A stretch of DNA of 14,290 nucleotides, taken from IMG/VR virus record IMGVR_UViG_2534682108_000014, positions 1-14,290 of that record. One strand, written 5' to 3'. The notes beneath the pieces were generated by a model. The model had not been told where the DNA came from, made no database searches, and was given only the letters and a program-made list of their open reading frames with translations. This DNA comes from a virus. Lineage: Duplodnaviria > Heunggongvirae > Uroviricota > Caudoviricetes. Shown here in pieces: positions 238 to 14,290 of the stretch; position 1 is the first letter of the stretch; every line of letters begins with the position of its first letter. The translations under genes were made by a program, and so were the position numbers.

Positions 238-421
238 CTCTTTCACTCCATCCGCGATGAACCATAAGAACGTCGTTGACGATGGCGTGCATTTTCCCGT
301 CTTTATCATCAACGTATTTTCTGACCGTACCGCGACTACATTTCAGTCTGCGTGCTACTTCTGTCTGGTTTCCGTATGCTTCAACGAGCATGTCTGGAAT
401 GGTTTTTACTGAGAACGTCAT
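215..421 (-). CDS. ninH: NinH protein (68 aa)
   Basis: 68-aa [40 protein letters not shown]... matches my memory of lambda NinH in size and sequence. Its start overlaps the ninG stop (ATGA), and it sits between ninG and the phosphatase gene. Confidence 0.85.
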
Positions 422-1029: not shown

Positions 1030-1198
1030 CGTCTTCTTCCTCGTACATTGAGCTATTCGGATCGCTCATAAGTTCTGCGCAACAGTGCTCACACACGTGA
1101 ACTTCCAGCACATGCAGCTTCTGACCGCAGTTAGCGCACGTTAAAGCCCGCTCGACGCTTTCTTTCTGGTATTAAATGGATTGGGATGGGCTAAGCAT
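1022..1198 (-). pseudogene. ninF: ninF-like 58-codon frame interrupted by an in-frame TAA at codon 9
   Basis: ATG at 1198 to TAA at 1022 is exactly 59 codons and translates [57 protein letters not shown]. The in-frame stop is at 1172-1174. This is NinF-like from memory of lambda NinF, which I recall with Q at that position. Confidence 0.55.
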
Positions 1199-1556
1199 TA
1201 TTGGCGTCCTGCATCATGAGAAAGACAATCATGGCAGCGCGGAGTGGGTTTTCATCTTGAGTCATATGATATGGGGTACTATCACTGCCAACTTTTCTAT
1301 GCGCTGCCTTCCATAATCCATTTTCTGGCGCTGGAATAATGCCAATTCTGTTCTCTACGATAATCGGCTCTGCGTCTGATGGGCTTTTACAGTAATCAAC
1401 CGTTTTTATTGCATAACCAGTTTCGTCATCCCACTCAACACCAACGATTGATGTTCCCAACTTTGCGATTTCGCAATCTTCGGGAGCAAATCCACAGCAA
1501 ATTGCCACTCGCTTGTTAATTTCAAAATCACTTAACTGTGAATAATCCATTGTCAT
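1191..1556 (-). CDS. Hypothetical nin-region protein (121 aa from ATG at 1556; occupies the ninX/ninD slot)
   Basis: ORF between ninE and ninF. ATG at 1556 overlaps the ninE stop (ATGA), suggesting translational coupling. The ORF-track start at 1592 would overlap ninE by 40 nt. No family recognised from sequence alone. Confidence 0.6.
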
Positions 1557-1729
1557 TTCCTCGCACGATGTCTTAGCCACCGGATATCCCACAGGTGAGC
1601 CGTGTAGTTGAAGGTTTTTACGTCAGATTCTTTTGGGATTGGCTTGCGTTTATTTCTGGAGCGCTTCGTTGGAAGGTATTTGCAGTTTTCGCAGATGATG
1701 TCGGTGATACTTCGTCGCTGTCGTCTCAT
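1553..1729 (-). CDS. ninE: NinE protein (58 aa)
   Basis: From ATG at 1729: [58 protein letters not shown], matching my memory of lambda NinE. Start overlaps the ninB stop (ATGA). The track start at 1774 is an upstream extension inside ninB. Confidence 0.85.
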
Positions 1730-2136
1730 TCGTACCTCCTGTCGGTAAATCTGACACCCTGACCAATAGCCCATGCTGTCGTGTACTCAATCAGGCTTGC
1801 CATGCGCTTCACGCTCATCTGTGCGCTGCTTTCGCGAATGTTGACGTATTCACCTTCAAGGCCGGGCAAAACATCAGCTTCCTGTTTTGTTGCCACTGCA
1901 TGACCGCTAATTAACAAAACCTTCCATTGTTCCGGTTTTAACCATTTGCCGCACCATTGAACCTGACGAGCGATATCCGCCAGCATCGCGTGAAATTTTG
2001 CGTTCTGGTCAAGGTTGCGCTTGTAGTCAGTAATGCGGATGGTAACTGGCTTGTCTTTATCGAGTGGTGTTGCGAGGATGGCGTTGATTGCGGCTTGCTG
2101 TTGTTGTTTACCACGGAGGAAGATTGTTTGCTTCAT
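1726..2136 (-). CDS. ninB: NinB-family recombination protein (about 136 aa)
   Basis: Contains the NinB-like core ...[33 protein letters not shown]... ATG at 2136 is preceded by GAAGGAG with a 5-nt spacer. The track start at 2142 is a GTG two codons upstream. Confidence 0.75.
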
Positions 2137-2138
2137 CG

Positions 2139-2453
2139 TCACTCCTTCACTTTGACTCCAACGGCGCGGATGTTTTCCTCATAAGCATCCATTCCATCGC
2201 CGAAGCCATTGGAATAATCAACAGTAAACCCTTTGGCTAATGCTTCTCTGCTGTCGATAAACTTTGGCGCGGTTATTTCAATAGCTGATCGCGATGCCTG
2301 CCATAAAGTCCACCACTCATTTAAGGAGTGACGAATATCCATGCTTGAAAATGCGAAGTACCTATCACCATTTCTTGCCTCGGTTATCATCTCGAATGGT
2401 AATCTCAATTTTTTGGCAACGTATTCCTCAAACTGCTTTCTTGATTCGTCCAT
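2139..2453 (-). CDS. Hypothetical protein (104 aa)
   Basis: Intact ORF with ATG at 2453, RBS GAGGG upstream, stop 2 nt before the ninB start. Same strand and tight spacing as neighbours. No motif recognised. Confidence 0.6.
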   Translation of the reverse strand: MDESRKQFEEYVAKKLRLPFEMITEARNGDRYFAFSSMDIRHSLNEWWTLWQASRSAIEITAPKFIDSREALAKGFTVDYSNGFGDGMDAYEENIRAVGVKVKE

Positions 2454-2470
2454 CGATAATTACCCTCAGT

Positions 2471-2677
2471 TCAACTCACAAAACACCACGCCATTTTTGC
2501 TACAGCGACAGGCGCAACACCGATAATCACCCACATGAGAATGCTACCGAAAAGCACACCCGCCAGGTCTTTACCTTCGCCTACCAACCGGACAAAACAG
2601 ACAGCAACCACAATGAACGTCGCCACCATCCACAGAGCACCGAGAAGCCTCAATGCAGAGAAAATTAACTCAACCAC
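2471..2677 (-). CDS. Small hydrophobic protein, two predicted transmembrane helices (68 aa, GTG start)
   Basis: MVELIFSALRLLGALWMVATFIVVAVCFVRLVGEGKDLAGVLFGSILMWVIIGVAPVAVAKMAWCFVS has two about 20-residue hydrophobic stretches split by a GEGKD turn. GTG start preceded by GGGGGAGAG 6 nt upstream. Lies directly downstream of an intrinsic terminator. Confidence 0.55.
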   Translation of the reverse strand: MVELIFSALRLLGALWMVATFIVVAVCFVRLVGEGKDLAGVLFGSILMWVIIGVAPVAVAKMAWCFVS

Positions 2678-2692
2678 GATTTACTCTCCCCC

Positions 2693-2724
2693 AAATAAAA
2701 AGGCCTGCGATTACCAGCAGGCCT
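2693..2724 (-). terminator. Rho-independent terminator on the minus strand between the 89-aa gene and the small membrane-protein gene
   Basis: Minus-strand reading AGGCCTGC-TGGTAATC-GCAGGCCT followed by TTTTTATTT: 8-bp GC-rich stem, 8-nt loop, U-tract. The plus-strand reading lacks a downstream T-run. Confidence 0.6.
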
Positions 2725-2749
2725 GTTATTAACTCAGAGATGTAGATGG

Positions 2750-3019
2750 TCATTGCTTCATCTCCCTTTCCATTTCATCAATGTCAACGTCATCAGGAAG
2801 ATGGGAGCAATACGCCGCTATACCATGATGATTTATCTCATACCCTTTGAACGTTACCATCTGATGCGTAATCTCAACTTCGTTCAGGAATCCGCCATCG
2901 CATAACTGCCTGGCTATTTTCGATTTGGTCTGGATTATTGGTAGTGCCTGTTCTTTCAAAGCGTATGATATTTGTGCATCCCATGCCTTTTCGAGAATGG
3001 CTAATTGTTTTTTATTCAT
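2750..3019 (-). CDS. Hypothetical protein (89 aa)
   Basis: ATG at 3019 with strong RBS AAGGAGG 6 nt upstream. Start overlaps the helicase stop by 1 nt (TGATG). No family recognised. Confidence 0.6.
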   Translation of the reverse strand: MNKKQLAILEKAWDAQISYALKEQALPIIQTKSKIARQLCDGGFLNEVEITHQMVTFKGYEINHHGIAAYCSHLPDDVDIDEMEREMKQ

Positions 3020-4455
3020 CAGAATCCTCCTTTCTTCTTGGACTGCGGTTCCTCGCGTTCACGGCGGCGCATTTCAGCAGACTGTTGGTCTGTGTCATAA
3101 ATAGCGCCATTTGCCTGAATGCAATACACCGTGCCGGTATTGCCATGACGATTGAGGCGAAGGATTAGTTCGGTTTCACCAGGTGGAACACTGTCATCAA
3201 AAGCACCTTCACGATGGATCCCCACCCAATAATCGCAATCCTGTTCAATCTGCCCTGTATCTCGTGAGTCACTTGGTAATGGGCGTTTATTGGTTCGGCT
3301 TTCCAGTGCGCGGTTAAGCTGTGTCAGAAGCACAACAACGCAATCAAGCTCTTTGGCAAGGTTCTTCAGTCCTTTGGTGATCATGCCGTAAGCAAGGTCG
3401 TTGCGATCGGCCTTTTCAGCGGTCATTAGTGTCAGGTAATCGACCAGAATCATGCCAACACATCCTTTTTCTCGCTTGATTCGACGGCTTTCGCTGACGA
3501 TTTGAGCCAGAGATAATCCCGGCGTGTCGTCAATGTAAAGCAGGTCGATTTCACTCAAGCGATTGGCTGTTTCGATCGCCCTGTTGAAGTCACCATCGTA
3601 ATCACCCTGATAGCCGTCATCAGCGTCATTTGTCGCCGGAAGGTAAAAAATATTCGGGTTAACACCTGACTTCTGTCCTACCAGTTTTTCCAGTATCTGG
3701 TCACCGGGCATTTCAAGGCTGAACATCAGAGCGGGCTTTTTCTCATGCACTGCGCAGTTGATTGCCATCTGGCTGTATAGCGTCGTTTTCCCCATCTTAG
3801 GGCGAGCGCCAATGACAAACAGAGAGCCTTTCACCAGACCTTTCGGTGACAGCATCCTGTCCAGCGATGGGATCCCTGTGCTCATTCCTCGTTGTTCGCC
3901 TGACGGGTCAAATCGCTTCTCAAGGTCGCTAACCCAGTCTTCCATGACCTCACCAAATGAGCGAAGGCCGCGACGCGATCCGGTTTTTGCATGGTCTGTC
4001 AGTTGCGTGAAAATCGCCTGAATAGCTTCGTACTTCTGCGTTGCAGTCATTCCGTTGCGGGAATAGAGCAATTCCGTCGCTTCAGTCATGCGGTTGATGG
4101 CGTAGCGTTCCATTGCGGTTTCACGAACCTGCATTGCATAGGCAACGATGTTTGCTGCGCTTGGCGTGTTCTTTGCGATCTCAGCGATATAAGCAAAACC
4201 GCCAACAGACACCGTTAACGATTTACGCTCCAGTTCATCGAAAAGCGTCAGGCCATCTACTGGCTTTTGCTCACGGTGCATTCTGGTTATTTCTTCGAAA
4301 ATGATTTTGTGTGGTCGGCTGTAAAATGAATCAGGCTTCAGCATCGCCAGGACTTTCTGGACGCGCTCACTGCTGTCATCATCCAGAAGCAATCCACCAA
4401 TCACCGCCTGCTCTGCCTCGATGCTATGGGGCGGCGCATAAAAATTATCGGTCAT
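3019..4455 (-). CDS. Replicative DNA helicase, DnaB family (phage P22 gene 12-like), about 478 aa
   Basis: Walker A GARPKMGKTT, Walker B-like ILVDYLTLM, and DnaB-type N-terminal SIEAEQAVIGGLLLD. ATG at 4455 is preceded by GAGGGTG; the track start at 4470 is a GTG extension. Confidence 0.93.
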   Translation of the reverse strand: MTDNFYAPPHSIEAEQAVIGGLLLDDDSSERVQKVLAMLKPDSFYSRPHKIIFEEITRMHREQKPVDGLTLFDELERKSLTVSVGGFAYIAEIAKNTPSAANIVAYAMQVRETAMERYAINRMTEATELLYSRNGMTATQKYEAIQAIFTQLTDHAKTGSRRGLRSFGEVMEDWVSDLEKRFDPSGEQRGMSTGIPSLDRMLSPKGLVKGSLFVIGARPKMGKTTLYSQMAINCAVHEKKPALMFSLEMPGDQILEKLVGQKSGVNPNIFYLPATNDADDGYQGDYDGDFNRAIETANRLSEIDLLYIDDTPGLSLAQIVSESRRIKREKGCVGMILVDYLTLMTAEKADRNDLAYGMITKGLKNLAKELDCVVVLLTQLNRALESRTNKRPLPSDSRDTGQIEQDCDYWVGIHREGAFDDSVPPGETELILRLNRHGNTGTVYCIQANGAIYDTDQQSAEMRRREREEPQSKKKGGF

Positions 4456-5335
4456 CGTGTTCACCCTCACGAACTTTCAGGTAGGTATTATCGTTAAGCA
4501 GGAAATCAAATCCCTTTTTGTGCCAGACGGTTCCGCGTTGATGGTTTGGACGCTCTTCGAACATCCATCGGCAATTTTCGCCTACGTAGCTCAAATAATT
4601 TCTCCAGTCCTGCATCGTGAACCCATGCCCGTCAAGCTGGCGGGTTATCACTCCGGCTTTGCGCCAGAACGTTCGGATCTGGTTTTTACGCTTGTCATTC
4701 AGTGCGCGGATTTTTGGCGCTTCAGGAAGGATTTCGTGGTAAGCATCGACAACATCCTGACAGCTAACGGAAGGTTTTTTCTTGTCAGACTTTTTGTCTG
4801 CTGCGGTACTCTCTAATACGTCAGTATTAGAGATATTATTTATATTATTGTTTATGGACAACCGTTGGACAACCGTTGGACAATCTCCGCTGAGAGCCGC
4901 GCCATTACTGGTGTTTGCGTTGGGCAACCGTTGGACAACCGTTGGACAATTTTTTGCCTGAAAATCGTCATATTTAACGATTGTAAACAGGCTAAATTTC
5001 TTCCCCATCGAGCAAATATTAAGCATACCTTTCGACTCAAAAGTCCGTAATAAGCTCCGAACTTTGTTGTCGGGGATGAATGTTTCTCTGACCAGCGACG
5101 GGCGTCCAGTTATCATCTGACCGCGATCAACAGTTATCGGCCCGATATCCGTATTGACGACAGTAGATTCGTGATTAGCCTTGAGGATTAAGTGAAGCCA
5201 AAGATGTACTGCCTGAGAGTCCTTATAGAGCCTGCTGTCCATAAACTGGCGGTGTATAGAGACATACCCCATACTGGATGCCTCCTGATGTTGTACAGGG
5301 TTATGCCTGTAATCAGCTAACTTAACGACGCCCAT
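4445..5335 (-). CDS. Replication initiation protein, lambda O-like (P22 gene 18-like), 296 aa, containing the origin
   Basis: Sits immediately upstream of the DnaB-type helicase; RBS AGGAGTG before ATG 5335. The coding sequence carries ori-type iterons, translated as the repeated peptide CPTVVQRL. Family assignment is by organisation plus recollection of O/gp18 proteins. Confidence 0.85.
   Translation of the reverse strand: MGVVKLADYRHNPVQHQEASSMGYVSIHRQFMDSRLYKDSQAVHLWLHLILKANHESTVVNTDIGPITVDRGQMITGRPSLVRETFIPDNKVRSLLRTFESKGMLNICSMGKKFSLFTIVKYDDFQAKNCPTVVQRLPNANTSNGAALSGDCPTVVQRLSINNNINNISNTDVLESTAADKKSDKKKPSVSCQDVVDAYHEILPEAPKIRALNDKRKNQIRTFWRKAGVITRQLDGHGFTMQDWRNYLSYVGENCRWMFEERPNHQRGTVWHKKGFDFLLNDNTYLKVREGEHDDR
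4815..4950. repeat. Replication origin: AT-rich tract (4815-4852) plus six approximately 11-bp iterons GGACAACCGTT in two clusters (4855-4887 and 4922-4950) inside the O-like gene
   Basis: Direct reading: ggacaaccgtt ggacaaccgtt ggacaatctcc, a 34-bp spacer, then gggcaaccgtt ggacaaccgtt ggacaattttt. Adjacent attagagatattatttatattattgtttat is AT-rich. Layout (iterons then AT-rich, in the O reading direction) mirrors lambda ori. Confidence 0.8.
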
Positions 5336-5483
5336 GTTTCACTCCTGCTTTGGCTAGTCTGTAAACACCAACAAGGCGCTCTGCGAACGCCCTGTTATTT
5401 GCTGCGGCTACCACTAATCCCTCAGGTGAATCAGGGTGTCGAATCTCTTCTTTTTCCTGGTATTTCTTACGACGTTTTGTCAT
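5322..5483 (-). CDS. Small basic hypothetical protein (53 aa) between the cII-like and O-like genes
   Basis: ATG at 5483 with RBS AGGAG 6 nt upstream; translates MTKRRKKYQEKEEIRHPDSPEGLVVAAANNRAFAERLVGVYRLAKAGVKHGRR. Its stop overlaps the O-like start. Below the ORF-track size cutoff, so a manual call. Confidence 0.4.
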   Translation of the reverse strand: MTKRRKKYQEKEEIRHPDSPEGLVVAAANNRAFAERLVGVYRLAKAGVKHGRR

Positions 5484-5517
5484 AATTACTCCTGTGGATT
5501 GATCCAGTCTTTCTACA

Positions 5518-5796
5518 TCAGGCCTCGAAGAATTCGCCGTTCTTCGGGGCTTTTTCTTTTGTCAGCATTCTGGCTACTTTCTTAGCCAGTTCCGCCAACT
5601 CCTCGTCTTCAACACCCCATTCAAGAACAGCCAGAAGCATGGCCATCTTTGGGATAAAGCTGTCTTTCCATCGCGAAATTTGCGATTCATTAATCCCTAA
5701 CGCGTCGGCAACCTTTCGCTGACCACGTACAGCAATTCGATTCAGGATGTTGCTTGTAATTGCATTCGCTTTCTTGCGAGTACTTGTAAGTTCCAT
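5518..5796 (-). CDS. c1: CII-family transcriptional activator (P22 C1-like), 92 aa
   Basis: From ATG 5796: MELTSTRKK...GINESQISRWKDSFIPKMAMLLAVLEWGVEDEEL, carrying the conserved CII core SQISRWK...IPK...MLLAVLEWGV. RBS AAGGAAA 7 nt upstream. The track start at 5883 is an upstream extension across the cro-cII spacer. Confidence 0.85.
   Translation of the reverse strand: MELTSTRKKANAITSNILNRIAVRGQRKVADALGINESQISRWKDSFIPKMAMLLAVLEWGVEDEELAELAKKVARMLTKEKAPKNGEFFEA
5522..5560 (+). terminator. Rho-independent terminator on the plus strand, antisense to the 3' end of the cII-like gene (candidate terminator of an OOP-like antisense RNA)
   Basis: GCCTCGAAGAA-TTCGCCG-TTCTTCGGGGC followed by TTTTTCTTTT: 11-bp stem with one mismatch, then a U-tract, on the plus strand only. 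Position is analogous to lambda terminator to. Confidence 0.5.
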
Positions 5797-5810
5797 ATGT
5801 AAGTATTTCC
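5774..5810 (+). promoter_or_regulatory. Candidate PRE (CII-activated establishment promoter) pointing toward cro/c2
   Basis: TTGC-gagtac-TTGT on the plus strand at 5774-5787 matches the TTGC-N6-TTGC CII/C1 site with one mismatch. It lies inside the first codons of the cII-like gene in the opposite orientation, as lambda pRE does. The -10 is weak, as expected for an activator-dependent promoter. Confidence 0.4.
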
Positions 5811-5829
5811 TTAACAAATAAGAAGTTAT

Positions 5830-5847
5830 GCGCATCAACTTATGCGC
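5830..5847 (-). other. Hairpin between nutR and the cII-like gene (possible tR1-like pause/termination element)
   Basis: GCGCAT-caactt-ATGCGC is a 6-bp inverted repeat with a 6-nt loop, followed on the minus strand by a U-rich but interrupted tract. Position matches lambda tR1; the structure alone is weak evidence. Confidence 0.3.
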
Positions 5848-5855
5848 GTTGTATT

Positions 5856-5898
5856 CCCGCATTTCGGCGGGAATGAGGACCATGACTGTTAAAGAGCA
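5856..5898 (-). promoter_or_regulatory. nutR: boxA (5887-5898) plus boxB hairpin (5856-5871) just downstream of cro
   Basis: Minus-strand reading TGCTCTTTAACA (boxA, same core as the E. coli rrn boxA), a 15-nt spacer, then CCCGCCGAAATGCGGG (5-bp stem, GAAA-containing loop). The same boxA core and an identical boxB recur downstream of PL. Confidence 0.65.
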
Positions 5899-5904
5899 AT
5901 TTGC

Positions 5905-6090
5905 TTATGCCGCTTTGCGGTAAGCGCTTTCTTGATACTTCAGGGCGCCAGCTGTAACGACTTCCAGTCGATAGGCGTCTTTCTCTGGGATGACTTCCTT
6001 CCACTGAGAGACTGCTGCGTCGCTAATGCCTAACGCTTTAGCTACAGCACGCTGGGTTCCGAAGTGGTCGATAACATCTTTCTTGTACAT
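5905..6090 (-). CDS. cro: Cro repressor, P22-type (61 aa)
   Basis: MYKKDVIDHFGTQRAVAKALGISDAAVSQWKEVIPEKDAYRLEVVTAGALKYQESAYRKAA matches P22 Cro almost residue for residue as I recall it; HTH QRAVAKALGISDAAVSQW. Divergent from the repressor gene across the operator region. Confidence 0.93.
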   Translation of the reverse strand: MYKKDVIDHFGTQRAVAKALGISDAAVSQWKEVIPEKDAYRLEVVTAGALKYQESAYRKAA

Positions 6091-6104
6091 AGACTCGCTC
6101 CGAA

Positions 6105-6170
6105 ATTAAAGAACACTTAAATTATCCACTAAAGGAATCTTAAGTCAAGTTTATTTAAGATGTCTTAACT
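6105..6170. promoter_or_regulatory. OR region: three 18-bp P22-type operators (6105-6122, 6128-6145, 6153-6170) with PR (minus strand, toward cro) and PRM (plus strand, toward c2)
   Basis: All three sites fit ANTNAAG-N4-CTTNANT: ATTAAAGaacaCTTAAAT, ACTAAAGgaatCTTAAGT, ATTTAAGatgtCTTAACT. Minus-strand PR reads -35 TTGACT (6143-6148) and -10 GATAAT (6121-6126) with 16-bp spacing. The third operator abuts the c2 ATG, implying a short or leaderless PRM transcript. Confidence 0.75.
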
Positions 6171-6821
6171 ATGAAAACTCAATTGATGGGAGAGCGCATT
6201 CGCGCTCGGAGAAAAGAACTCAAGATCAGGCAGGCCGCACTTGGAAAGATGGTCGGCGTGTCTAATGTTGCCATATCTCAGTGGGAACGCTCTGAGACAG
6301 AGCCAAATGGAGAGAATCTTCTCGCCCTGGCTAATGCGTTGAAGTGTTCCCCTGACTATCTGATGAAAGGAGAGGAAAGTCTTTCAAACATTGCCTATCA
6401 CAGTAGGCATGATCCAAGAGGGTCATACCCTCTGATTAGCTGGGTGAGCGCAGGATGCTGGATGGAAGCTGTAGAACCATATCATAAGCGTGCAATAGAT
6501 AACTGGTACGATACAACCGTAGACTGTTCAGAAGATTCGTTTTGGTTGGACGTGAAGGGAGACTCAATGACGGCTCCGGCCGGTCTCAGTATCCCTGAAG
6601 GAATGATAATACTCGTCGATCCTGAAGTAGAGCCGCGTAACGGGAAACTGGTAGTTGCAAAGCTCGAAGGAGAAAACGAGGCAACTTTCAAGAAGTTAGT
6701 TATTGATGCAGGCAGGAAGTTTCTAAAACCACTTAACCCACAATATCCGATGATCGAGATCAACGGAAACTGCAAAATCATCGGCGTAGTTGTCGATGCA
6801 AAACTAGCAAACCTTCCATAA
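6171..6821 (+). CDS. c2: Prophage repressor, P22 C2-type (216 aa), LexA-like autocleavable
   Basis: MKTQLMGERIRARRKELKIRQAALGKMVGVSNVAISQWERSETEPNGENLLALANAL... matches P22 C2 near-identically from memory and has the same length. N-terminal HTH, Ala-Gly cleavage region, and C-terminal S24-type GDSM serine with a downstream lysine. Confidence 0.96.
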   Translation: MKTQLMGERIRARRKELKIRQAALGKMVGVSNVAISQWERSETEPNGENLLALANALKCSPDYLMKGEESLSNIAYHSRHDPRGSYPLISWVSAGCWMEAVEPYHKRAIDNWYDTTVDCSEDSFWLDVKGDSMTAPAGLSIPEGMIILVDPEVEPRNGKLVVAKLEGENEATFKKLVIDAGRKFLKPLNPQYPMIEINGNCKIIGVVVDAKLANLP

Positions 6822-6846
6822 GGGGGCATTCGCCCCTTTTTTTTAT
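6822..6846 (+). terminator. Rho-independent terminator downstream of c2
   Basis: GGGGC-ATTC-GCCCC followed by TTTTTTTT, starting 1 nt after the c2 stop codon. Confidence 0.8.
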
Positions 6847-6887
6847 TTCCTTTAAAAATCAAAGCCAAACTTAAGTTACGAAAGAAA

Positions 6888-6940
6888 ATTTAAGTTTTCT
6901 TCAAAAATACTCTTGACCATTAATTAAAGAGATCTTAAAT
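6888..6940. promoter_or_regulatory. OL/PL region: P22-type operator at 6923-6940, weaker site at 6888-6905, and PL promoter (plus strand)
   Basis: ATTAAAGagatCTTAAAT (6923-6940) is a perfect fit to the operator pattern; ATTTAAGttttCTTCAAA (6888-6905) has one mismatch. PL reads -35 TTGACC (6913-6918) and -10 TTAAAT (6935-6940) with 16-bp spacing, the -10 lying inside the operator. Confidence 0.65.
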
Positions 6941-6986
6941 TTAAGCCATCAGCAGGACGCTGGTAGCCAAACGGAACAGATTGGCA

Positions 6987-7027
6987 GGCTCTTTAACATT
7001 GATGGGATTGTCCCGCCGAAATGCGGG
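6987..7027 (+). promoter_or_regulatory. nutL: boxA (6987-6998) plus boxB hairpin (7012-7027) in the PL leader
   Basis: GGCTCTTTAACA, a 13-nt spacer, then CCCGCCGAAATGCGGG. The boxB is identical to the nutR one on the other strand, and the boxA core GCTCTTTAACA is shared. Confidence 0.62.
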
Positions 7028-7339
7028 AACCAAAGAGTAGTTGGCTTTGGGGTGACGTGAAGTGCAGCTGCACGACGGCAACCGGAAGATAAGCACCCGG
7101 CGCGTCACCGCCAAAGTCAATTCCATAGGCGAAATGCAGCCGCCAAACACAGCCAATGCTGCACATGCAACAGGAGGATTTATGTGAATGCATAACTTCA
7201 AAACCGAGGTTAATTAAATCTCTCGATCCGAGCATTGACCTATTAGGTGGCGAGATGCTCTTTCTGCCCCTCAGTTCGAGGGGCCAGAAACCACTTTGCA
7301 ATCACTATCAATTCCAAAGTTGTTTCATCGGAGGTCAAC

Positions 7340-7612
7340 ATGACAGTAGTCATTACATATCTGGCTGACGATAACGCCAGAAATCGCCGCAGAGCACGCA
7401 GACAGGCTCAACGTGAACAGGCAATGCAAGAGCAGCGACTGACGCGAAAAATTGCGCTAAAGCTCTCTGGTTGCGTCAGAGCAGATAAAGCAGCATCACT
7501 CGGAAGCCTTCGCTGTAAGGAAGAAGATGAACGCAGTGGAAGTATTTGCCTGCCAAACGTAGCCATTTACGCGGCAGGATACCGGAAATCAAAACAACTG
7601 ACGGCGAGGTAA
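7340..7612 (+). CDS. 24: N-like transcription antiterminator (P22 gene 24-like), 90 aa
   Basis: From ATG 7340 (RBS GGAGG): MTVVITYLADDNARNRRRARRQAQREQ... with an N-terminal arginine-rich motif, and a C-terminus LPNVAIYAAGYRKSKQLTAR resembling P22 gp24 as I recall it. Lies downstream of PL/nutL. The track start at 7247 is an upstream extension. Confidence 0.85.
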   Translation: MTVVITYLADDNARNRRRARRQAQREQAMQEQRLTRKIALKLSGCVRADKAASLGSLRCKEEDERSGSICLPNVAIYAAGYRKSKQLTAR

Positions 7613-7615
7613 GTG

Positions 7616-7840
7616 ATGAATCAGACATACATTCCATCATGCTTGAGAAATCTGCCAAAGCAGAAAGCAAAGCCCCGCAAGCAAGCCATAAAGGACGCTA
7701 AGGCAGAGGTTATTGATCAAGCAATACAATTGCTCAGGGAGGAGTTAAGAAGTGGCAAGCTCGAAGGAATGATGATGCCATATCAGCGCGGATATCTATC
7801 GGCGATTAGTAAGTTGGAAGTATTGAAGAGTGAATTATGA
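7616..7840 (+). CDS. Hypothetical protein (74 aa), lysine-rich N-terminus
   Basis: ATG at 7616 begins 4 nt after the N stop, with GAGG 7 nt upstream. Same strand as the PL operon. No family recognised. Confidence 0.55.
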   Translation: MNQTYIPSCLRNLPKQKAKPRKQAIKDAKAEVIDQAIQLLREELRSGKLEGMMMPYQRGYLSAISKLEVLKSEL

Positions 7841-7902
7841 ACTATCTGGAATTTCCGGATGGTTCATTGTTTTGGCAGCAAACCACTTATTTGAGGTGAT
7901 AT

Positions 7903-8154
7903 ATGGAATTTCATGAAAGTGCGATTTGTGATTTTCGCGCTAACGCAAATTCAGTAAAACAACAGCCAATTGCAGTTCTTTTTAAAACAATGGGTGCGTG
8001 GGCTGTTTTATGCTTCGCCGCTGACGACACTGACGCAAGAATGGCAATAGGCCAAGAGATGGAGATGGATCCGACAAACGATGAATTCATAATTTATGGC
8101 GCTCCATCTAATTACTTACTTGATACCTGCAACATTTACAACAAGGCTGCCTGA
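7903..8154 (+). CDS. Hypothetical protein (83 aa)
   Basis: ATG at 7903 preceded by GAGGTGATAT. Acidic, cysteine-containing, no recognisable motif. Confidence 0.55.
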   Translation: MEFHESAICDFRANANSVKQQPIAVLFKTMGAWAVLCFAADDTDARMAIGQEMEMDPTNDEFIIYGAPSNYLLDTCNIYNKAA

Positions 8155-8213
8155 TGGTGGTCTTTATTTTTTAGCCGTAAATAATTTCATGCTTATTACA
8201 ATCAAGGTGATAT

Positions 8214-8579
8214 ATGGAAGAACAAGCAAACAAGATTCTCGTAGAACTACTGCAAAAAGCCAGCAATGGAATAGACGCGGCTGTTTCATTTAGCCAGGCA
8301 CAGATTCCTGATGTCATCCATCAGCTTTTGATGTGGCACGCCGTATCATCAGCTGGAATTCAGGCTATCTGTGTATTGGTGATTATAGCGTGTGTTTATC
8401 TGATGATTTTTGCATGGAATAAAGGAGATGATGCAGATATTGTTCTTTCATCACTACTTGTCACATCAGGAATAGCGATTACTTCTATTGTTGTTTTCTT
8501 CAATTATTTCGACTGGCTGAAAATTTGGCTTGCTCCAAAACTTTACCTTATCGAATATGCAGCATCATTGGTTAAGTAA
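8214..8579 (+). CDS. Hypothetical membrane protein (121 aa) with two predicted transmembrane helices
   Basis: ATG at 8214 preceded by AAGGTGATAT. Hydrophobic segments AGIQAICVLVIIACVYLMIFAW and LLVTSGIAITSIVVFFNYF follow an amphipathic N-terminal region. Confidence 0.6.
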   Translation: MEEQANKILVELLQKASNGIDAAVSFSQAQIPDVIHQLLMWHAVSSAGIQAICVLVIIACVYLMIFAWNKGDDADIVLSSLLVTSGIAITSIVVFFNYFDWLKIWLAPKLYLIEYAASLVK

Positions 8580-8638
8580 TTTCAGGACGCATAGTCGGCC
8601 TTTATTTTTGGCACAAACAACAGAATAAACACTGCACT

Positions 8639-8666
8639 GTGTATTCATTCCAACGAGTGAATACAC
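8639..8666 (+). other. Long hairpin / inverted repeat (12-bp arms, 4-nt loop) in the intergenic region upstream of the c3-like gene
   Basis: GTGTATTCATTC-caac-GAGTGAATACAC gives 12 pairs counting one G-U in RNA (one mismatch as DNA). No U-tract follows, so it is not an intrinsic terminator. Confidence 0.5.
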
Positions 8667-8728
8667 GGAGCAATGTCGCTCGTAACTAAACAGGAGCCGA
8701 CTTGTTCTGATTATTGGAAATCTTCTTT

Positions 8729-8754
8729 GCCCTCCAGTGTGAGGGCCTTTTTAT
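8729..8754 (+). terminator. Rho-independent terminator within the PL operon, upstream of the c3-like gene
   Basis: GCCCTC-cagtgt-GAGGGC followed by CTTTTTTAT on the plus strand. Confidence 0.6.
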
Positions 8755-8818
8755 ATGCATACCAATAACGCTTCACTCGAGGCGTTTTCGTTATGCAATC
8801 AAATATAAGGAGTTACCC

Positions 8819-8953
8819 ATGATGCACTTTCAGTTCGCGGGTAGCGGCGTCATGTCCGCTTTCTACCCGCACGAATCTGAATTATCACGCCGAGTTAAAC
8901 AATTAATAAGAGCAGCAAAGAAACAACTGGAGGCGTTATGCGCAATGAAATAG
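8819..8953 (+). CDS. c3: CIII-like small protein (44 aa), putative FtsH-inhibitor that would stabilise CII
   Basis: From ATG 8819 (RBS AAGGAG, 5-nt spacer): MMHFQFAGSGVMSAFYPHESELSRRVKQLIRAAKKQLEALCAMK. This shares the lambda CIII pattern AG..V...P.ES.L.R...L.....K.L as I recall it. The track ORF starting at 8714 spans the terminator and is rejected. Confidence 0.5.
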   Translation: MMHFQFAGSGVMSAFYPHESELSRRVKQLIRAAKKQLEALCAMK

Positions 8954-9090
8954 CCATCAATCACCAGATGCTTCGTGCGGCACAAAACAAAGCAGTAATA
9001 GCCAGATTTATTGGTGATTCCAAAATGTGGCTTGAAGCAAATAAAGCGATGAAATCAGCTATCAACCTTCCGTGGTATCGCAGGAAATGA
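8938..9090 (+). CDS. Small hypothetical protein (50 aa), in the kil/arf position of P22-like phages
   Basis: ATG 8938 with GGAGG 4 nt upstream, overlapping the c3-like 3' end. Translates MRNEIAINHQMLRAAQNKAVIARFIGDSKMWLEANKAMKSAINLPWYRRK. Below the ORF-track cutoff; positional inference only. Confidence 0.4.
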   Translation: MRNEIAINHQMLRAAQNKAVIARFIGDSKMWLEANKAMKSAINLPWYRRK

Positions 9091-9245
9091 GTTTTACAGA
9101 TAACTGGTCAGACGAAGAATTCATTCGTCAGATGAAAGAATTAATCGGTAACGAAGGAGATATTCATGTCACTTGCAACCACAGTGAAGGAGAGCAAGTT
9201 ACAGAGACGCATGTACACGCAGAAAGCTCTCTGGTATCGCCATAA
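9087..9245 (+). CDS. Small acidic hypothetical protein (52 aa)
   Basis: ATG 9087 overlaps the preceding stop (ATGA), suggesting coupling; the RBS is poor. Translates MSFTDNWSDEEFIRQMKELIGNEGDIHVTCNHSEGEQVTETHVHAESSLVSP. Confidence 0.35.
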   Translation: MSFTDNWSDEEFIRQMKELIGNEGDIHVTCNHSEGEQVTETHVHAESSLVSP

Positions 9246-9346
9246 TGGCGACCGCGAAGGAATGCGGGTATGCCTTAATTTGTCCCGAGTCGAAGTATTA
9301 AATCAGCGTTATTTCCTTGGGCCTTGTCCATTCTGAGAACAAACAT

Positions 9347-9952
9347 ATGAGCAAAGAATTTTACGCAAGACTGGCTGCTATTCAGGAGAATCTGAACGCG
9401 CCAAAAAATCAGTACAACTCATTCGGCAAATATAAATACAGAAGCTGCGAAGATATTCTTGAAGGCGTTAAGCCGTTACTGAATGGTCTGTTTTTATCAA
9501 TCAGCGATGAAGTTGTGTTGATTGGTGATCGGTATTACGTGAAAGCCACGGCAACTATTACCGATGGCGAAAACAGTCATACGGCAACCGCTCTTGCACG
9601 AGAGGAAGAAAGCAAGAAAGGAATGGATTCTGCACAAGTTACGGGAGCCACAAGCTCTTATGCACGCAAGTATTGCCTCAATGGTTTGTTCGGCATTGAT
9701 GATGCGAAAGATGCAGATACCGACGAGCATAAACATCAGCAGAACGCAGCAGCAAAGCAATCAAAACCATCACCTACACCTGAACAGGTTCTAAAAGCAT
9801 TCACTGACGCAGCATTGCAGAAAAACACCGTGGAAGAGCTTAAACAGGCGTTCGCCAAAGCGTGGAAGATGCTCGAAGGCACACCGGAGCAGCACAAAGC
9901 GCAGGACGTTTACAACATCAGACGAGACGAATTAGAAGGAGCTGCTGCTTAA
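9347..9952 (+). CDS. erf: Erf, essential recombination function protein (single-strand annealing protein), 201 aa
   Basis: From ATG 9347: MSKEFYARLAAIQENLNAPKNQYNSFGKYKYRSCEDILEGVKPLLNGLFLSISDEVVLIGDRYYVKATATITDGENSH... matches P22 Erf closely from memory. The track start at 9317 is a TTG extension. Confidence 0.9.
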   Translation: MSKEFYARLAAIQENLNAPKNQYNSFGKYKYRSCEDILEGVKPLLNGLFLSISDEVVLIGDRYYVKATATITDGENSHTATALAREEESKKGMDSAQVTGATSSYARKYCLNGLFGIDDAKDADTDEHKHQQNAAAKQSKPSPTPEQVLKAFTDAALQKNTVEELKQAFAKAWKMLEGTPEQHKAQDVYNIRRDELEGAAA

Positions 9953-10335
9953 TGGCACATTCGATTACTGTAAGACTAAACAAGCCCGCAAGAGAGTTTC
10001 AGGCCGGGGAAAATATCGGATTCAACATCCGTGCTGGCGTTCAGTATTACGATCGCCAGACAAAAAAGAAAGAATGGACAAACTACAGCGCCGTTGTATT
10101 TGCCAAGCCTGGAGCGCAAGCTGATTACTACCGTAGTGTTCTTGTTGAAGGTGGCATTGTAGAAATTACCGGAGAAAACATCAGGGTTGATGTTTATCAG
10201 GGGCAAAATGGTCAATCAATCACTCTTGAATTACTGAATGCAAAGATTGGATTTGCAACTTCAGGAAACAGCCAACAGCAGCAAAGTAGCAATCATCAAA
10301 ATCATCCTGAATACGACGATTCAATTCCCTTCTAA
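9952..10335 (+). CDS. Single-stranded DNA-binding protein-like (short SSB with acidic C-terminal tail), 127 aa
   Basis: ATG 9952 overlaps the erf stop (TAATG). The C-terminus ...QQQQSSNHQNHPEYDDSIPF resembles the SSB signature tail DDDIPF after a Q-rich linker, and the N-terminal region has an SSB-like pattern (W.NYSAVVFAK ... VEGG.VEITG). The track start at 9862 lies inside erf. Confidence 0.6.
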   Translation: MAHSITVRLNKPAREFQAGENIGFNIRAGVQYYDRQTKKKEWTNYSAVVFAKPGAQADYYRSVLVEGGIVEITGENIRVDVYQGQNGQSITLELLNAKIGFATSGNSQQQQSSNHQNHPEYDDSIPF

Positions 10336-10358
10336 AGTAGCAACATAAGGATTCCATT

Positions 10359-10652
10359 ATGCCAGCGCCTCTGTATGGTGCGGATGACCCGCGCCGCTGT
10401 TCCGGCAATTCCGTATCGGAGGTGCTGGATAAATTCAGAAAAAACTACGACCGGATAATGTCTCTACCGCAGGAAACGAAAGAGGAAAAGGAATTTCGCC
10501 ACTGTATATGGCTTGCAGAGAAAGAAGAACGCGAGCGAATTTACCAGACATCAATCCGCCCATTCCGCAAAGCCACATATACCCACTTCCCTGAAATTGA
10601 CCCGCGCCTGCGTAATTACCGCTCACGCTATGGCGCTATCAGTAATGACTGA
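10359..10652 (+). CDS. Hypothetical protein (97 aa); by position could be an anti-RecBCD abc-type gene, but not recognised
   Basis: ATG 10359 with AAGGA 7 nt upstream. No motif recognised; the functional guess is positional only (downstream of erf). Confidence 0.55.
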
Positions 10653-10662
10653 GGAATTTACC

Positions 10663-10827
10663 ATGAGAGGACTTGCATACAATCCCGGCATTCTTCCGGC
10701 AGAAATGATTATTCGACAACGCGTAAAGCCAATGCCATCGAGAGAGGAATTGCTTAAGAGAAAGAGTTTCGGTTCTGTTAATGACAACAAATATCTGAAT
10801 GCGATGTGGCGGAGTGGGAAGAAATGA
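10663..10827 (+). CDS. Small hypothetical protein (54 aa)
   Basis: ATG 10663 with GAGGAA 7 nt upstream: [54 protein letters not shown]. The track ORF starting at 10513 is a long upstream extension overlapping the previous gene in another frame. Confidence 0.45.
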
Positions 10828-11216
10828 AACAAATGACACTAATTGAGATGGATGGATTTCTGAAAGGTAAATGCATTCCACGAGATTTAAAGGTTAACGA
10901 AACAAACGCTGAATATCTGGTGCGTAAATTTGCTGAAGCGGAGGCCAAGTGCGCGGCGCTGGCTGCGGAGAATGCGGCGCTGAAGAAGTTCTGCAAAGAC
11001 GCTGCATTCGATGCCGATTACGAAGCAGAGCTAGGTATGGAGCGTGGTGGATTCAGTGATGCACTTAACGATATCGAAACCACAGCCACCGACGCTTTCT
11101 TGGCTGAAGTACGGGCGCAGGGCGTGGAGATGTTTGCTGACCATCTGTTGTGCCCAAACCTTGATGACACTATCCGTGACTTTGCTGCCCAGCTTCGCAA
11201 AGGAGTGCAGTCATGA
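10824..11216 (+). CDS. Hypothetical protein (130 aa), alanine-rich helical segment
   Basis: ATG 10824 overlaps the upstream stop (ATGA). Contains [20 protein letters not shown], suggestive of a helical or coiled-coil segment. Confidence 0.55.
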
Positions 11217-11575
11217 AAAGAGAGCCGAAAAAAACTGTGAAGATTAAGCGTTTCCGCTACTCACTTGATTGGTTCACCGTTGATGACGTTGAGTGCGAAG
11301 TCGGCAATGGATTCAGCTACGAAATGCAGTTTCGTCTCGGGGCATGGTATCTGATGGGGAAATATTACGATTACAAGGCTGAGCAGTGGTACGAGGATTA
11401 TAGAAAATCATTCCAGCTGGAATGCCCAGCGGAAGCCGTTATTGCTCTTGGTAATAGCCTGACGAAGTTCAGCAGACTTCACGACTGTGACCACCTGACT
11501 GAACACCTCGCTAAACTGCTGAAAGGCGTTGCTTCGCGCATTGCTATTAGTGAAGCAGAAGGAGGCAACCAGTGA
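11213..11575 (+). CDS. Hypothetical protein (120 aa)
   Basis: ATG 11213 overlaps the upstream stop (ATGA), with AAAGGAG 7 nt upstream. No motif recognised. Confidence 0.6.
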   Translation: MKREPKKTVKIKRFRYSLDWFTVDDVECEVGNGFSYEMQFRLGAWYLMGKYYDYKAEQWYEDYRKSFQLECPAEAVIALGNSLTKFSRLHDCDHLTEHLAKLLKGVASRIAISEAEGGNQ

Positions 11576-12180
11576 GCAAGATTGATTATCAAAAGCTTCG
11601 TGAAATCGCTGAAAAAACAAAAATTGCTGGTGAAGCACCTGTAATGCCTTTCGATCAGCGAATTAATGCGCTTAACGATTTTATGAAGCACTTTTCGCCA
11701 GATATCGCGCTGGCATTGTTGGATGAACGGGAAAGAAACCAGCAATACATCAAATCCCGCGACCAGGAGAACGAGGATATTGCGCTAACGGTAGGGAAGC
11801 TGCGCGTTGAGCTGGAAGGCAAAGACAGCAAAATAGCCAATCTTACCGCCGAACGCGATGCTCTTCGTGAAGGTGAGATGGGCGACGCTAGGCATAGCAA
11901 CACACGGGCCGCAGCTGATATCTACTTCCAACTGGTCGAGGAGTGCGAAATTCCTGCTGGCGGTTCTCTGGTCGAGTACGTTGACGATATGCGCGAGAAG
12001 CTGGAAGCCGCAGAGAAGCGCATTGCAGAACTGGAAGCGCGGGAAATACTGCTCCCGGAACGTAGCAGCATGCTTCATCGAACAGATTTTCACGATGATT
12101 ACCAAACGGTAATGGCATACAAAGTTTCTGAGGTCATCGATGCAATCCGCGCCGCTGGCATTCGCATCAAAGGAGAGTGA
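11572..12180 (+). CDS. Hypothetical coiled-coil protein (202 aa), ea-region type
   Basis: GTG 11572 overlaps the upstream stop (GTGA), preceded by strong GAAGGAGG. Central heptad-like region KLRVELEGKDSKIANLTAERDALREGE ... LEAAEKRIAELEARE. Confidence 0.6.
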   Translation: MSKIDYQKLREIAEKTKIAGEAPVMPFDQRINALNDFMKHFSPDIALALLDERERNQQYIKSRDQENEDIALTVGKLRVELEGKDSKIANLTAERDALREGEMGDARHSNTRAAADIYFQLVEECEIPAGGSLVEYVDDMREKLEAAEKRIAELEAREILLPERSSMLHRTDFHDDYQTVMAYKVSEVIDAIRAAGIRIKGE

Positions 12181-12181
12181 G

Positions 12182-12373
12182 ATGAATGGACAAATATCAA
12201 TTGTTCGACCTGGAGCATGTGACGATTGCGAGATACGAATGATTATTCGTCTGGCAATGGGGAAAACAATAACTGCTCTCATTACTCCAGAAAATCTCGC
12301 ATTGGCATTAACCGGAAAGTCAGACCTGCCAGTAGAGCTAAAGCTGCGAAATGTTGAGATTAAGGTGAAATAG
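12182..12373 (+). CDS. Small hypothetical protein (63 aa)
   Basis: ATG 12182 sits 1 nt after the upstream stop, with AAGGAGAG upstream: MNGQISIVRPGACDDCEIRMIIRLAMGK... The track start at 12140 lies inside the previous gene. Confidence 0.5.
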   Translation: MNGQISIVRPGACDDCEIRMIIRLAMGKTITALITPENLALALTGKSDLPVELKLRNVEIKVK

Positions 12374-12374
12374 C

Positions 12375-12971
12375 ATGAATTCTATTACCAAAGAACGTAT
12401 TGAATTGTTCATTAAAGATCCGCTTGAAAACGGGCTTACTCGTGGCGAACAAATGGAACTGGCACGAATTGCACTGGCATCACTGGAACGCGAACAGATT
12501 CGCCACGAGCATGCCAAATGGTCTGACTCCACATTTGGCTGCGTTGGCCCCATTGGTCCGCTGAAACATCTCTCAAAAGAGGCTCTGGAAGCCGCAGCCG
12601 AACCAGACGATCTTAGCGAGTGGGCTGATATGCAGTTTCTGTTGTGGGATGCACAGCGCCGTGCTGGCATCAGCGATGCTGAAATTACCGCTGCTATGGA
12701 AGATAAATTGAAGATCAACATGGAGCGCCAGTGGCCTGAGCCAAAAGATGGTGAGCCTCGCTTGCACATTAAAGAACCCGGCAACTATCCGGCAACTCCG
12801 GATGGTTGGGTTATGGTGCCGAAGGAGTTAACCCCGGAAATGATGAGAGCCGTTCAGATTAGAAGTGAGCTTGGAGGGTATGCCACTTCCAATCTATCTG
12901 GTGCATACAATATGTTTTCTGAGTTCTGGAATGTTGCTGTCTCAGCTGCGCCTAAGGTGGATGATTTATGA
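12375..12971 (+). CDS. Hypothetical protein (198 aa)
   Basis: ATG 12375 sits 1 nt after the upstream stop, with AAGGTGA 6 nt upstream. No motif recognised. Confidence 0.6.
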   Translation: MNSITKERIELFIKDPLENGLTRGEQMELARIALASLEREQIRHEHAKWSDSTFGCVGPIGPLKHLSKEALEAAAEPDDLSEWADMQFLLWDAQRRAGISDAEITAAMEDKLKINMERQWPEPKDGEPRLHIKEPGNYPATPDGWVMVPKELTPEMMRAVQIRSELGGYATSNLSGAYNMFSEFWNVAVSAAPKVDDL

Positions 12972-13270
12972 ATCTATATCGCTGCCCATTCTGTGGTTCC
13001 ACTGTGCTTAACATCGGATACTCATTCAATATCAGAGGGAAAATGCGCTATGTGTCATGCAAATGTGGTGCCCAAGGACCAGAAAAACGAACTAAATCTG
13101 AAGCGATTTCTTCATGGAATAGTCGAATGAAAGTATGGGTTTATGATCCAGAAACCATATTAAACGCTGAAGAGCGCAGGAGAACGGAAGTCTATATTCA
13201 TAACCTTAATGAAGATGGATTTACACCAGTGCTTGTAAAGGCTACTCCGCAGGAGGTTAACCATGGCTAA
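12968..13270 (+). CDS. Lar-family restriction alleviation protein-like (100 aa; Lar-like N-terminal zinc-ribbon domain plus C-terminal extension)
   Basis: N-terminus MNLYRCPFCGSTVL...YVSCKCGAQGP...SEAISSWNSR shows the CPFCG...C.CG...A...WN.R pattern I associate with the Lar (Rac prophage) family. ATG overlaps the upstream stop (ATGA); RBS AAGGTGG. Confidence 0.6.
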   Translation: MNLYRCPFCGSTVLNIGYSFNIRGKMRYVSCKCGAQGPEKRTKSEAISSWNSRMKVWVYDPETILNAEERRRTEVYIHNLNEDGFTPVLVKATPQEVNHG

Positions 13271-13547
13271 CCTACAACTTGCCGTCAAAGGTGAATACTT
13301 CGATGCCATGATTCGCAGAGAGAAAACGGAAGAGTATCGCCTGTGTAATGACTATTGGAATAAGCGCCTCGTTAACCGTAAGTATGACCGCCTGATTATC
13401 ACAAAGGGATATCCGAAGCGCGACGACTTCAGTCGCAGAATTGATGTTCCGTATGACGGATATGAAATCAAGACAATCACACATCCCCACTTCGGCGATA
13501 AACCGGTAAAGGTGTTCGCGATAAAGGTGAATATCGGCAATGAATAA
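13263..13547 (+). CDS. ASCH/PUA-like domain protein (94 aa), tentative
   Basis: N-terminus LQLAVKGEYFDAMIRREKTEEYR resembles the ASCH-domain opening pattern (I.KPEYFD.I..G.KT.E.R). ATG 13263 preceded by AGGAGG. Confidence 0.45.
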   Translation: MANLQLAVKGEYFDAMIRREKTEEYRLCNDYWNKRLVNRKYDRLIITKGYPKRDDFSRRIDVPYDGYEIKTITHPHFGDKPVKVFAIKVNIGNE

Positions 13548-13551
13548 CAAT

Positions 13552-13578
13552 CCTCGCACTCGCGGGGATTTCTTTTAT
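13552..13578 (+). terminator. Possible weak intrinsic terminator after the ASCH-like gene
   Basis: CCTCGC-actc-GCGGGG (6-bp stem including one G-U) followed by the U-rich ATTTCTTTTAT. Confidence 0.3.
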
Positions 13579-13619
13579 CTGAACTCGCTACGGCGGGTTT
13601 TGTTTTATGGAGACAAGAA

Positions 13620-13964
13620 ATGTCAGATTTGGCTATGAAGGTTTTGAAATGGCAATCGACTGGCGATGTCGGCATCAGTAGCGCAACTCTTGCCTCAATC
13701 GCATGTGGACTGAAAAAGAATATCTATGGTCATAGCTTCGGTGCTCCACATGACGCAGCCGATTTCAGACGATGCGTTGCACTTGTTGAGCAGATTCCAG
13801 AAATCAGAGATTCATTCGACAAGGTTGCAAAGCGCGTTCCGGCATTCAAAGGAATCCTCAACGAATGGGATTCACTCGTTGCTCTGTTGAAGTCTGAAAT
13901 GAAGATACACGGAAACAAAGCACCAGAGACTTACAGAAGAATTAGCGAGTTACGCAAGGACTAA
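13620..13964 (+). CDS. Hypothetical protein (114 aa)
   Basis: ATG 13620 with GGAGA 6 nt upstream; intact ORF on the operon strand. No motif recognised. Confidence 0.6.
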   Translation: MSDLAMKVLKWQSTGDVGISSATLASIACGLKKNIYGHSFGAPHDAADFRRCVALVEQIPEIRDSFDKVAKRVPAFKGILNEWDSLVALLKSEMKIHGNKAPETYRRISELRKD

Positions 13965-14023
13965 CCACAGCCTCACACTCGATGAGGCCAGTTCATTTCT
14001 CAAGATATCCAGACCTACCATCG

Positions 14024-14047
14024 CCGCATCAATGCGGTTTTTTTATT
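14024..14047 (+). terminator. Rho-independent terminator upstream of the xis-like gene
   Basis: CCGCA-tcaa-TGCGG (5-bp stem, tetraloop) followed by a run of nine T. Confidence 0.45.
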
Positions 14048-14089
14048 GCCTGATTTGCAGGTTCGATTCCCTATTCGGAGATAGCACTC

Positions 14090-14290
14090 ATGCAACACGA
14101 ACTACAGCCTGATTCACTGGTTGATTTGAAATTCATCATGGCCGATACTGGCTTCGGTAAAACCTTCATCTATGACCGGATTAAGTCCGGGGACCTGCCT
14201 AAAGCCAAAGTTATCCACGGGCGAGCAAGATGGTTATATCGTGACCATTGTGAATTCAAAAATAAGCTCTTAAGCCGCGCCAATGGGTAA
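14090..14290 (+). CDS. AlpA/Xis-family small DNA-binding protein (putative excisionase), 66 aa
   Basis: LVDLKFIMADTGFGKTFIYDRIKSGDLPKAKVIHGRARWLYRDHCEF fits the AlpA/excisionase pattern (helix-turn-helix then conserved R.W). Sits at the distal end of the PL operon, where xis-int are expected. Stop codon is the last triplet of the window. Confidence 0.6.
   Translation: MQHELQPDSLVDLKFIMADTGFGKTFIYDRIKSGDLPKAKVIHGRARWLYRDHCEFKNKLLSRANG

Follow-up and report, generated by a model that had tools for sequence, protein, structure and literature searches.

The 127-aa protein encoded directly downstream of erf in the viral DNA analyzed here (the window, by which we mean the whole stretch of 14,290 nucleotides, positions 1 to 14,290 of IMG/VR record IMGVR_UViG_2534682108_000014) is very probably a phage-encoded, highly diverged bacterial-type single-strand DNA-binding protein (SSB), the orthologue of HK97 gp40, acting in a recombination module together with Erf and Abc2. 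Neither the gene nor its kind is new, and the SSB assignment was already made by fold in 2025 (PMC12315714). In that Genome Research study, HK97 gp40, with near-absent sequence similarity to known SSBs, was given an AF3-predicted structure like those of bacterial SSBs and named SSB-1b, and the accompanying survey of lambdoid phages lists a module type consisting of an anti-RecBCD protein, an SSB, and an annealase with no nuclease (PMC12315714). HK97 gp40 (NP_037725) is the same gene as the window ssb, with no substantive difference: the two are syntenic, HK97 and the window share the gene order kil, gp42, erf, gp40, abc2, and DNA identity is 97% over positions 9000-10700. The HK022 and mEp213 copies match the window protein at 100% identity. 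Our literature search found no experimental study of this protein.

The window comprises the immunity and early region of an HK97/HK022/Sf101-type lambdoid phage, and the 1.7 kb around erf and ssb is 96–98% identical to Sf101, HK106, HK97, HK022, several mEp phages, and many Stx-converting phages. The early-left genes lie on the plus strand in the order kil, gp42.1, gp42, erf, gp40-type ssb, and abc2. Positions 1-8600, read from ORF translations alone, resemble standard lambdoid early-region content. The features of the window are as follows.

3019-4470, minus strand, DnaB-like helicase (ORF translation only)
4445-5335, minus strand, O-like replication protein (ORF translation only)
Within 1-8600, minus strand, nin-region genes, cII-like and cro-like genes (ORF translations only)
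6171-6821, plus strand, cI-like repressor (ORF translation only)
7247-7612, plus strand, N-like antiterminator (ORF translation only)
8938-9090, plus strand, kil (Pfam Lambda_Kil)
9072-9245, plus strand, HK97 gp42.1-like small ORF of 57 aa (phrog_2123 'recombinase', E 9e-42; HK97 annotation)
9166-9336, plus strand, HK97 gp42-like small ORF of 56 aa, at the position of P22 arf (phrog_1723 'recombinase', E 9e-36)
9347-9952, plus strand, erf, encoding an Erf-family single-strand annealing protein of 201 aa (Pfam ERF PF04404; phrog_155)
9497-9760, 9736-9897, and 9976-10215, minus strand, ORFs inside conserved plus-strand genes
9952-10335, plus strand, ssb, predicted HK97 gp40-type SSB ('SSB-1b') of 127 aa (phrog_44; hhalign; AF2 and fold searches)
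10359-10652, plus strand, abc2, anti-RecBCD (Pfam Anti-RecBCD_p2, E 6.1e-64; phrog_656)
14090-14290, Xis/AlpA-like ORF (ORF translation only)

The gp42.1-like (9072-9245) and gp42-like (9166-9336) ORFs overlap each other, both upstream of erf; a Pfam search of the former returned no match, and a search for likeness to P22 Arf in the two small ORFs found none. Promoter- or terminator-like sites were sought inside the cluster, and none were found.

The product of erf firmly belongs to the Erf family, as the earlier note on this DNA had proposed: it matched Pfam ERF (PF04404) over residues 5-143 with 151.6 bits against a cut-off of 25 (E 2.1e-44) and phrog_155 at E 1.6e-57, and is 97–100% identical to the Erf proteins of HK97, HK022, and HK542. 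The gene runs from ATG at 9347 to TAA at 9950-9952, and ssb from ATG at 9952-9954 to TAA at 10333-10335, with two features at their junction.

9950-9954, plus strand, TAATG overlap of erf stop and ssb start, one base in common (sequence; 80/80 related loci)
9936-9941, plus strand, AAGGAG Shine-Dalgarno sequence of ssb inside the 3' end of erf (10 nt before ATG 9952)

The TAATG junction, which the earlier note had pointed out, recurs with Erf upstream in every one of 80 related IMG/VR loci; these are 98–100% identical to the window and show synteny, not diversity. Upstream of this start, an in-frame GTG at 9862 would make a 157-aa ORF, but given that all gp40-type homologues begin with MAHSIT or MHSIT, ATG 9952 is favored. 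Translational coupling of erf and ssb is plausible, judged from the overlap alone, and ssb has its own Shine-Dalgarno sequence. We found no signal of an RNA structure sequestering that sequence (minimum free energy -13.8 kcal/mol, z = +0.81). The earlier note had also described a two-component annealase-SSB module. Erf and SSB do adjoin in one operon, but two small 'recombinase' ORFs lie ahead of erf, and abc2 starts 23 nt past the ssb stop in 78 of the 80 loci and 22 nt past it in the remaining 2; the module has three parts, Erf, SSB, and Abc2.

The SSB call needed PHROGs, hhalign, and fold searches, while Pfam, NCBIfam, and PDB sequence searches remained below threshold. A Pfam search of the 127-aa protein at E ≤ 1 gave no match, SSB (PF00436) included; the TIGR00621 'ssb' model reached 16.4 bits (E 0.008), below its cut-off of 53.95; and the PDB sequence search returned only a marginal SSB, 7d8j, at E 0.04 (E 0.65 with the family profile). 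PHROG 44, 'single strand DNA binding protein', was matched at E 1.8e-28, and hhalign of the family profile gave a probability of 90.6% against E. coli SSB (E 1.3e-6, 57 columns) and of 89.5% against phage Sf6 SSB. By hhalign, Y32, W42, F50, and Y82 align with W40, W54, F60, and W88 of E. coli SSB, the four aromatics that stack on ssDNA in the E. coli SSB-ssDNA structures. Across the gp40 family, positions 32, 42, and 50 show little or no variation, and every member has Y or F at position 82.

Structure prediction pointed the same way. With a 40-sequence alignment, AF2 gave a mean pLDDT of 85.7, with a confident β-barrel at residues 1-103 that has strands at 3-8, 14-18, 21-34, 39-51, 69-74, 76-84, 87-95, and 98-103 and one helix (55-63), and with residues 107-120 disordered. 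The model has the makeup of an OB fold, namely a five-stranded barrel with long hairpin loops and with a helix inserted between the third and the fourth strand. We infer that the gp40-type core binds ssDNA. In a Foldseek search of the PDB, every one of the 50 best matches was either PriB or an SSB of bacterial or mitochondrial origin (E from 2.6e-5, probability 1.0, TM 0.4-0.55). That PriB structures score almost equal to SSBs lends something to the view that the protein is a PriB-like primosome accessory, or else a general phage replication SSB, lying next to erf through genome packing. We consider this unlikely; with regard to PriB, the window protein has an acidic C-terminal tip, whereas PriB is not known to have one. 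The SSB reading of the earlier note is thus supported by prediction, through the PHROG match, the hhalign probability, and the four aligned aromatics, and the OB fold that it had wished to see checked was obtained. The note had remarked that 127 aa is shorter than typical SSBs; the OB core is not truncated, and the fold assignment holds in prediction. The short length is due mainly to a linker of about 15 aa, where that of E. coli SSB has roughly 55 aa.

The predicted protein falls into three parts.

9952-10260, plus strand, OB-fold core, residues 1-103, basic with pI 8.96 (AF2, pLDDT mostly above 90)
10261-10305, plus strand, Q/N/S-rich disordered linker, residues 104-118 (pLDDT below 50 for 107-120)
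10306-10332, plus strand, acidic tip PEYDDSIPF, residues 119-127 (likeness to E. coli SSB tip)

The C-terminus reads ...SGNSQQQQSSNHQNH-PEYDDSIPF, with WNHPEYDDSIPF as the tip peptide. The linker holds 5 Q, 3 N, 4 S, and 2 H among its 15 residues, in line with the glutamine-rich linker and DDSIPF end described in the earlier note, and the tail is acidic (pI 4.5) in contrast to the basic core. The tip is identical to the E. coli SSB tip MDFDDDIPF at 5 of 9 positions. Like E. coli SSB, the window protein combines a predicted OB fold, aromatics at the four DNA-stacking positions, a disordered linker, and a tip of the form D-D-x-I-P-F, but structure-based identity between the two is 20% or less, and T43 of the window SSB aligns with E. 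coli His55, a residue important for the tetramer.

A search of a large protein collection returned 320 homologues at E ≤ 1e-3, whose sources are Escherichia, Salmonella, Citrobacter, Cronobacter, Serratia, Rahnella, Leminorella, and metagenomes. Among phage genome records, 198 carry a gp40-type protein, and Vibrio phages account for 140 of these. Conservation is high over the first ~103 residues, where 18 columns do not vary in an alignment of 40 diverse members. Full-length members span 123-215 aa, and the length of their Q/P/N-rich linker varies widely; past this variable linker, the extreme C-terminus regains a D/E-x-(I/P)-P-F motif. The sequence ends in xP[F/Y] in 82 of 107 full-length homologues, and in 3 more IPF stands before a short extension. 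Given the 320 homologues in Enterobacterales and Vibrio phages, the TAATG junction in 80/80 loci, and xP[F/Y] in 82/107 despite variable linkers, with total lengths between 123 and 183 aa, the pattern of tail and overlap is not due to chance. A subfamily of gp40-type proteins (P0091-P0118) is without the acidic IPF tip and ends in ...NFQQPR, ...FPQHQG, or ...YNSPQQ after long Q/P-rich linkers. In phage HF4s (1453-1848 of its locus), ssb is broken up into two ORFs, one of 285 nt and one of 111 nt, and in mEp234 (PV340539.1) the match covers SSB residues 1-49 only. Judging from these two sequences, ssb appears to be dispensable or decaying in some relatives.

The tail also bears on whether the protein acts mainly as a decoy, whose host-like tip would titrate the partners of host SSB (ExoI, RecQ, RecO, PriA, and the chi subunit) or redirect them, with DNA binding as a secondary matter. 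The close match of PEYDDSIPF to the host tip MDFDDDIPF, the unusually short linker, and the location of ssb beside another host-takeover gene, abc2, would all suit such a role. Against it, conservation within the family is highest in the OB core with its four aromatics, a sign that DNA binding is under selection, and about a fifth of the full-length homologues carry tails other than xP[F/Y] on the same core (some look frameshifted, others end in, e.g., NFQQPR). We therefore regard a decoy as distinctly unlikely and retain the reading as an SSB of the recombination module, which may also compete with host SSB.

Erf carries a C-terminal domain that could be relevant to a possible contact with the SSB tip.

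9782-9943, plus strand, Erf C-terminal domain, residues 146-199, predicted three-helix bundle (AF2; sequence comparison)

AF2 of a 64-aa construct gave a pLDDT of 89.7, with helices at 8-21, 25-39, and 44-62. Erf 146-199 is 52% identical (E 6e-14) to the C-terminus of a Leminorella Sak4-like protein that precedes a gp40-type SSB. Combining tblastn, Pfam, and annotations, we found the domain on four unrelated annealase cores: ERF (P22), Rad52_Rad22 (Sf6), RecT (phiV10 by Pfam, phiEt88 by annotation), and AAA_24 (Erwinia phage EhrS_59). These architectures were revealed by tblastn against phage genomes; a word-indexed search gave fragments only, and an exhaustive phmmer search gave 19 matches. 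Erf-type C-terminal domains in other loci are located as follows.

L003, 3810-3998, Erf-type C-terminal domain
L092, 2477-2665, Erf-type C-terminal domain
L093, 1801-1989, Erf-type C-terminal domain
L094, 1801-1992, Erf-type C-terminal domain
L095, 1780-1974, Erf-type C-terminal domain
L097, 1801-1992, Erf-type C-terminal domain

One tentative idea, which we would not put higher than a possibility, is that this portable domain could be a universal reader of SSB tips, loading any annealase core onto ssDNA coated by host or phage SSB. If true, a short-linker phage SSB would shift the competition for the annealase in the phage's favor. The C-terminal domain of lambda Red-beta binds the SSB tail, according to Caldwell 2019 as cited in PMC12054835, and offers a possible analogy of a small helical C-terminal domain reading the SSB tip, the Erf domain being predicted as three-helix. 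The two domains have no sequence similarity. By this analogy the SSB tip may contact Erf; our search for evidence of such a contact found none. The Erf C-terminal domain is also present in phages without an SSB of their own (P22, phiV10, and EhrS_59), and in two metagenomic loci, L098 and L099, the annealases have the same C-terminal domain, whereas the adjoining SSB tails differ (NFNQPQR vs. NIPF). These two observations give no support to an exclusive pairing of the domain with the phage SSB tip; because host SSB carries the same tip, the tip-reader idea keeps some probability, although it is speculative. The 2025 paper left the 'shuffling of partner interaction domains' unanalyzed (PMC12315714).

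The ERF proteins of L098 (2455-2973) and L099 (2456-2974) have divergent N-terminal domains, with 38% identity overall, and share a different short C-terminal domain (…AKQWI..VK…LNQI..PAYK.FIKTNAGI). In a PDB sequence search, helix 3 of the Erf C-terminal profile (about 9887-9943) matched colicins E2, E3, and E9 at E 0.002-0.03 within their receptor-binding coiled coil (QAKAVQVYNSRKSELDAA), probably a coincidence of helical composition.

Genomic context across phages bears on the role of the protein as well. The gene just before the gp40-type SSB is ERF in the window, in the metagenomic loci L006, L098, and L099, and in Vibrio phage K75 (L089), whose proteins are 56% (Erf) and about 50% (SSB) identical to those of the window. 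In a Leminorella prophage (L003), a gp40-type SSB follows a Sak4/AAA_24 gene with the same TAATG overlap, and in the L100 phage, a gp40-type SSB without the IPF tip follows RecT and a YqaJ exonuclease. From these gene neighborhoods, the gp40-type family seems to behave as a recombination-module SSB across large evolutionary distances. In the Vibrio and metagenomic phages L005, L090, and L091, gp40-type members have no adjoining annotated annealase, as might be seen if the protein were a general replication SSB. Several observations speak against that interpretation: in lambdoid phages, the gene always lies between erf and abc2 (80/80 loci); ssb is far from the O/P genes, which are located at 3019-5335 on the opposite strand; and the family follows three different annealase families in distant phages.

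Comparison with other lambdoid phages places the window genes among related layouts. P22 has the same operon layout, erf-abc1-abc2, with a 1-nt overlap at erf and an Erf with both domains in common, but its Abc1 (94 aa) is unrelated to gp40, and P22 encodes no SSB. P22 abc1 (L093, 1992-2276) overlaps the erf stop by one base like ssb and encodes an unrelated 94-aa product, and from this comparison the slot downstream of erf appears to accept unrelated genes. The lambdoid Rec modules of Sf6 and ES18 ('SSB-1') likewise have ssb directly behind the annealase gene, but the Sf6 SSB is canonical, bacterial-type, and recognizable by sequence, and the annealase core in Sf6 is Rad52_Rad22 instead of ERF. 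HK620 encodes an SSB (HkaK, 'SSB-2') after the annealase and before abc2, with a host-like tip, NDYPPF; it is longer than the window SSB (195 aa), and its partner Sak4 is a RecA-like ATPase, not Erf. No relationship between the window SSB and HK620 SSB-2 was detectable (BLASTP E 73; hhalign probability 0.3%).

The shared position and 1-nt erf overlap with P22 abc1 could suggest that the window protein is instead a non-DNA-binding OB-fold protein, for instance an Abc1-like accessory to the anti-RecBCD function, and HK620 hkaK, in the equivalent slot, was first annotated as abc1 (PMC5928155). This alternative seems extremely improbable, considering that similarity to P22 Abc1 is absent (hhalign probability 0.2%), that the fold and profile evidence favors an SSB, and that HK620 turned out to encode a true SSB in that slot (PMC5928155). 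The HK620 SSB binds ssDNA and boosts Sak4 recombineering and annealing via its last six residues, NDYPPF (PMC5928155). The gain that depends on the tail is roughly 10-fold in HK620. More generally, annealase activity has been described as determined by SSB C-terminal tails, and annealase operons often include a phage SSB (PMC12054835). By analogy, the Sak4/SSB pair of HK620 is the best functional model for the Erf/SSB pair of the window.

We propose that the window SSB would act within the recombination module as follows. The early-left transcript from pL would yield Erf, SSB, and Abc2 together, and the ssb start overlapping the erf stop would keep the synthesis of Erf and SSB linked. Abc2-modified RecBCD or replication forks would expose ssDNA, which the basic OB core of the phage SSB would coat and protect. 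The acidic tip could then recruit Erf, and possibly host SSB-binding proteins, and Erf would anneal complementary strands.

Modules of annealase and SSB were established before, as was stimulation that depends on the tail (PMC5928155, PMC12054835), and our result leaves the view of such modules unchanged. Annotation of the gene has been uneven: many GenBank/RefSeq records still label it 'hypothetical protein' or 'Gp40', at least one record, that of phage HF4s, uses 'ssb protein', and Vibrio phage homologues are labeled 'nucleic acid-binding, OB-fold protein' or 'single strand DNA binding protein'. In many E. coli, Salmonella, and Stx-phage records the gene still goes by 'hypothetical protein'; here it is confirmed as a predicted diverged SSB within the Erf/Abc2 recombination module, which is useful for annotation and for picking matched annealase/SSB pairs in recombineering. 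Also of some value is the C-terminal domain common to four annealase families.
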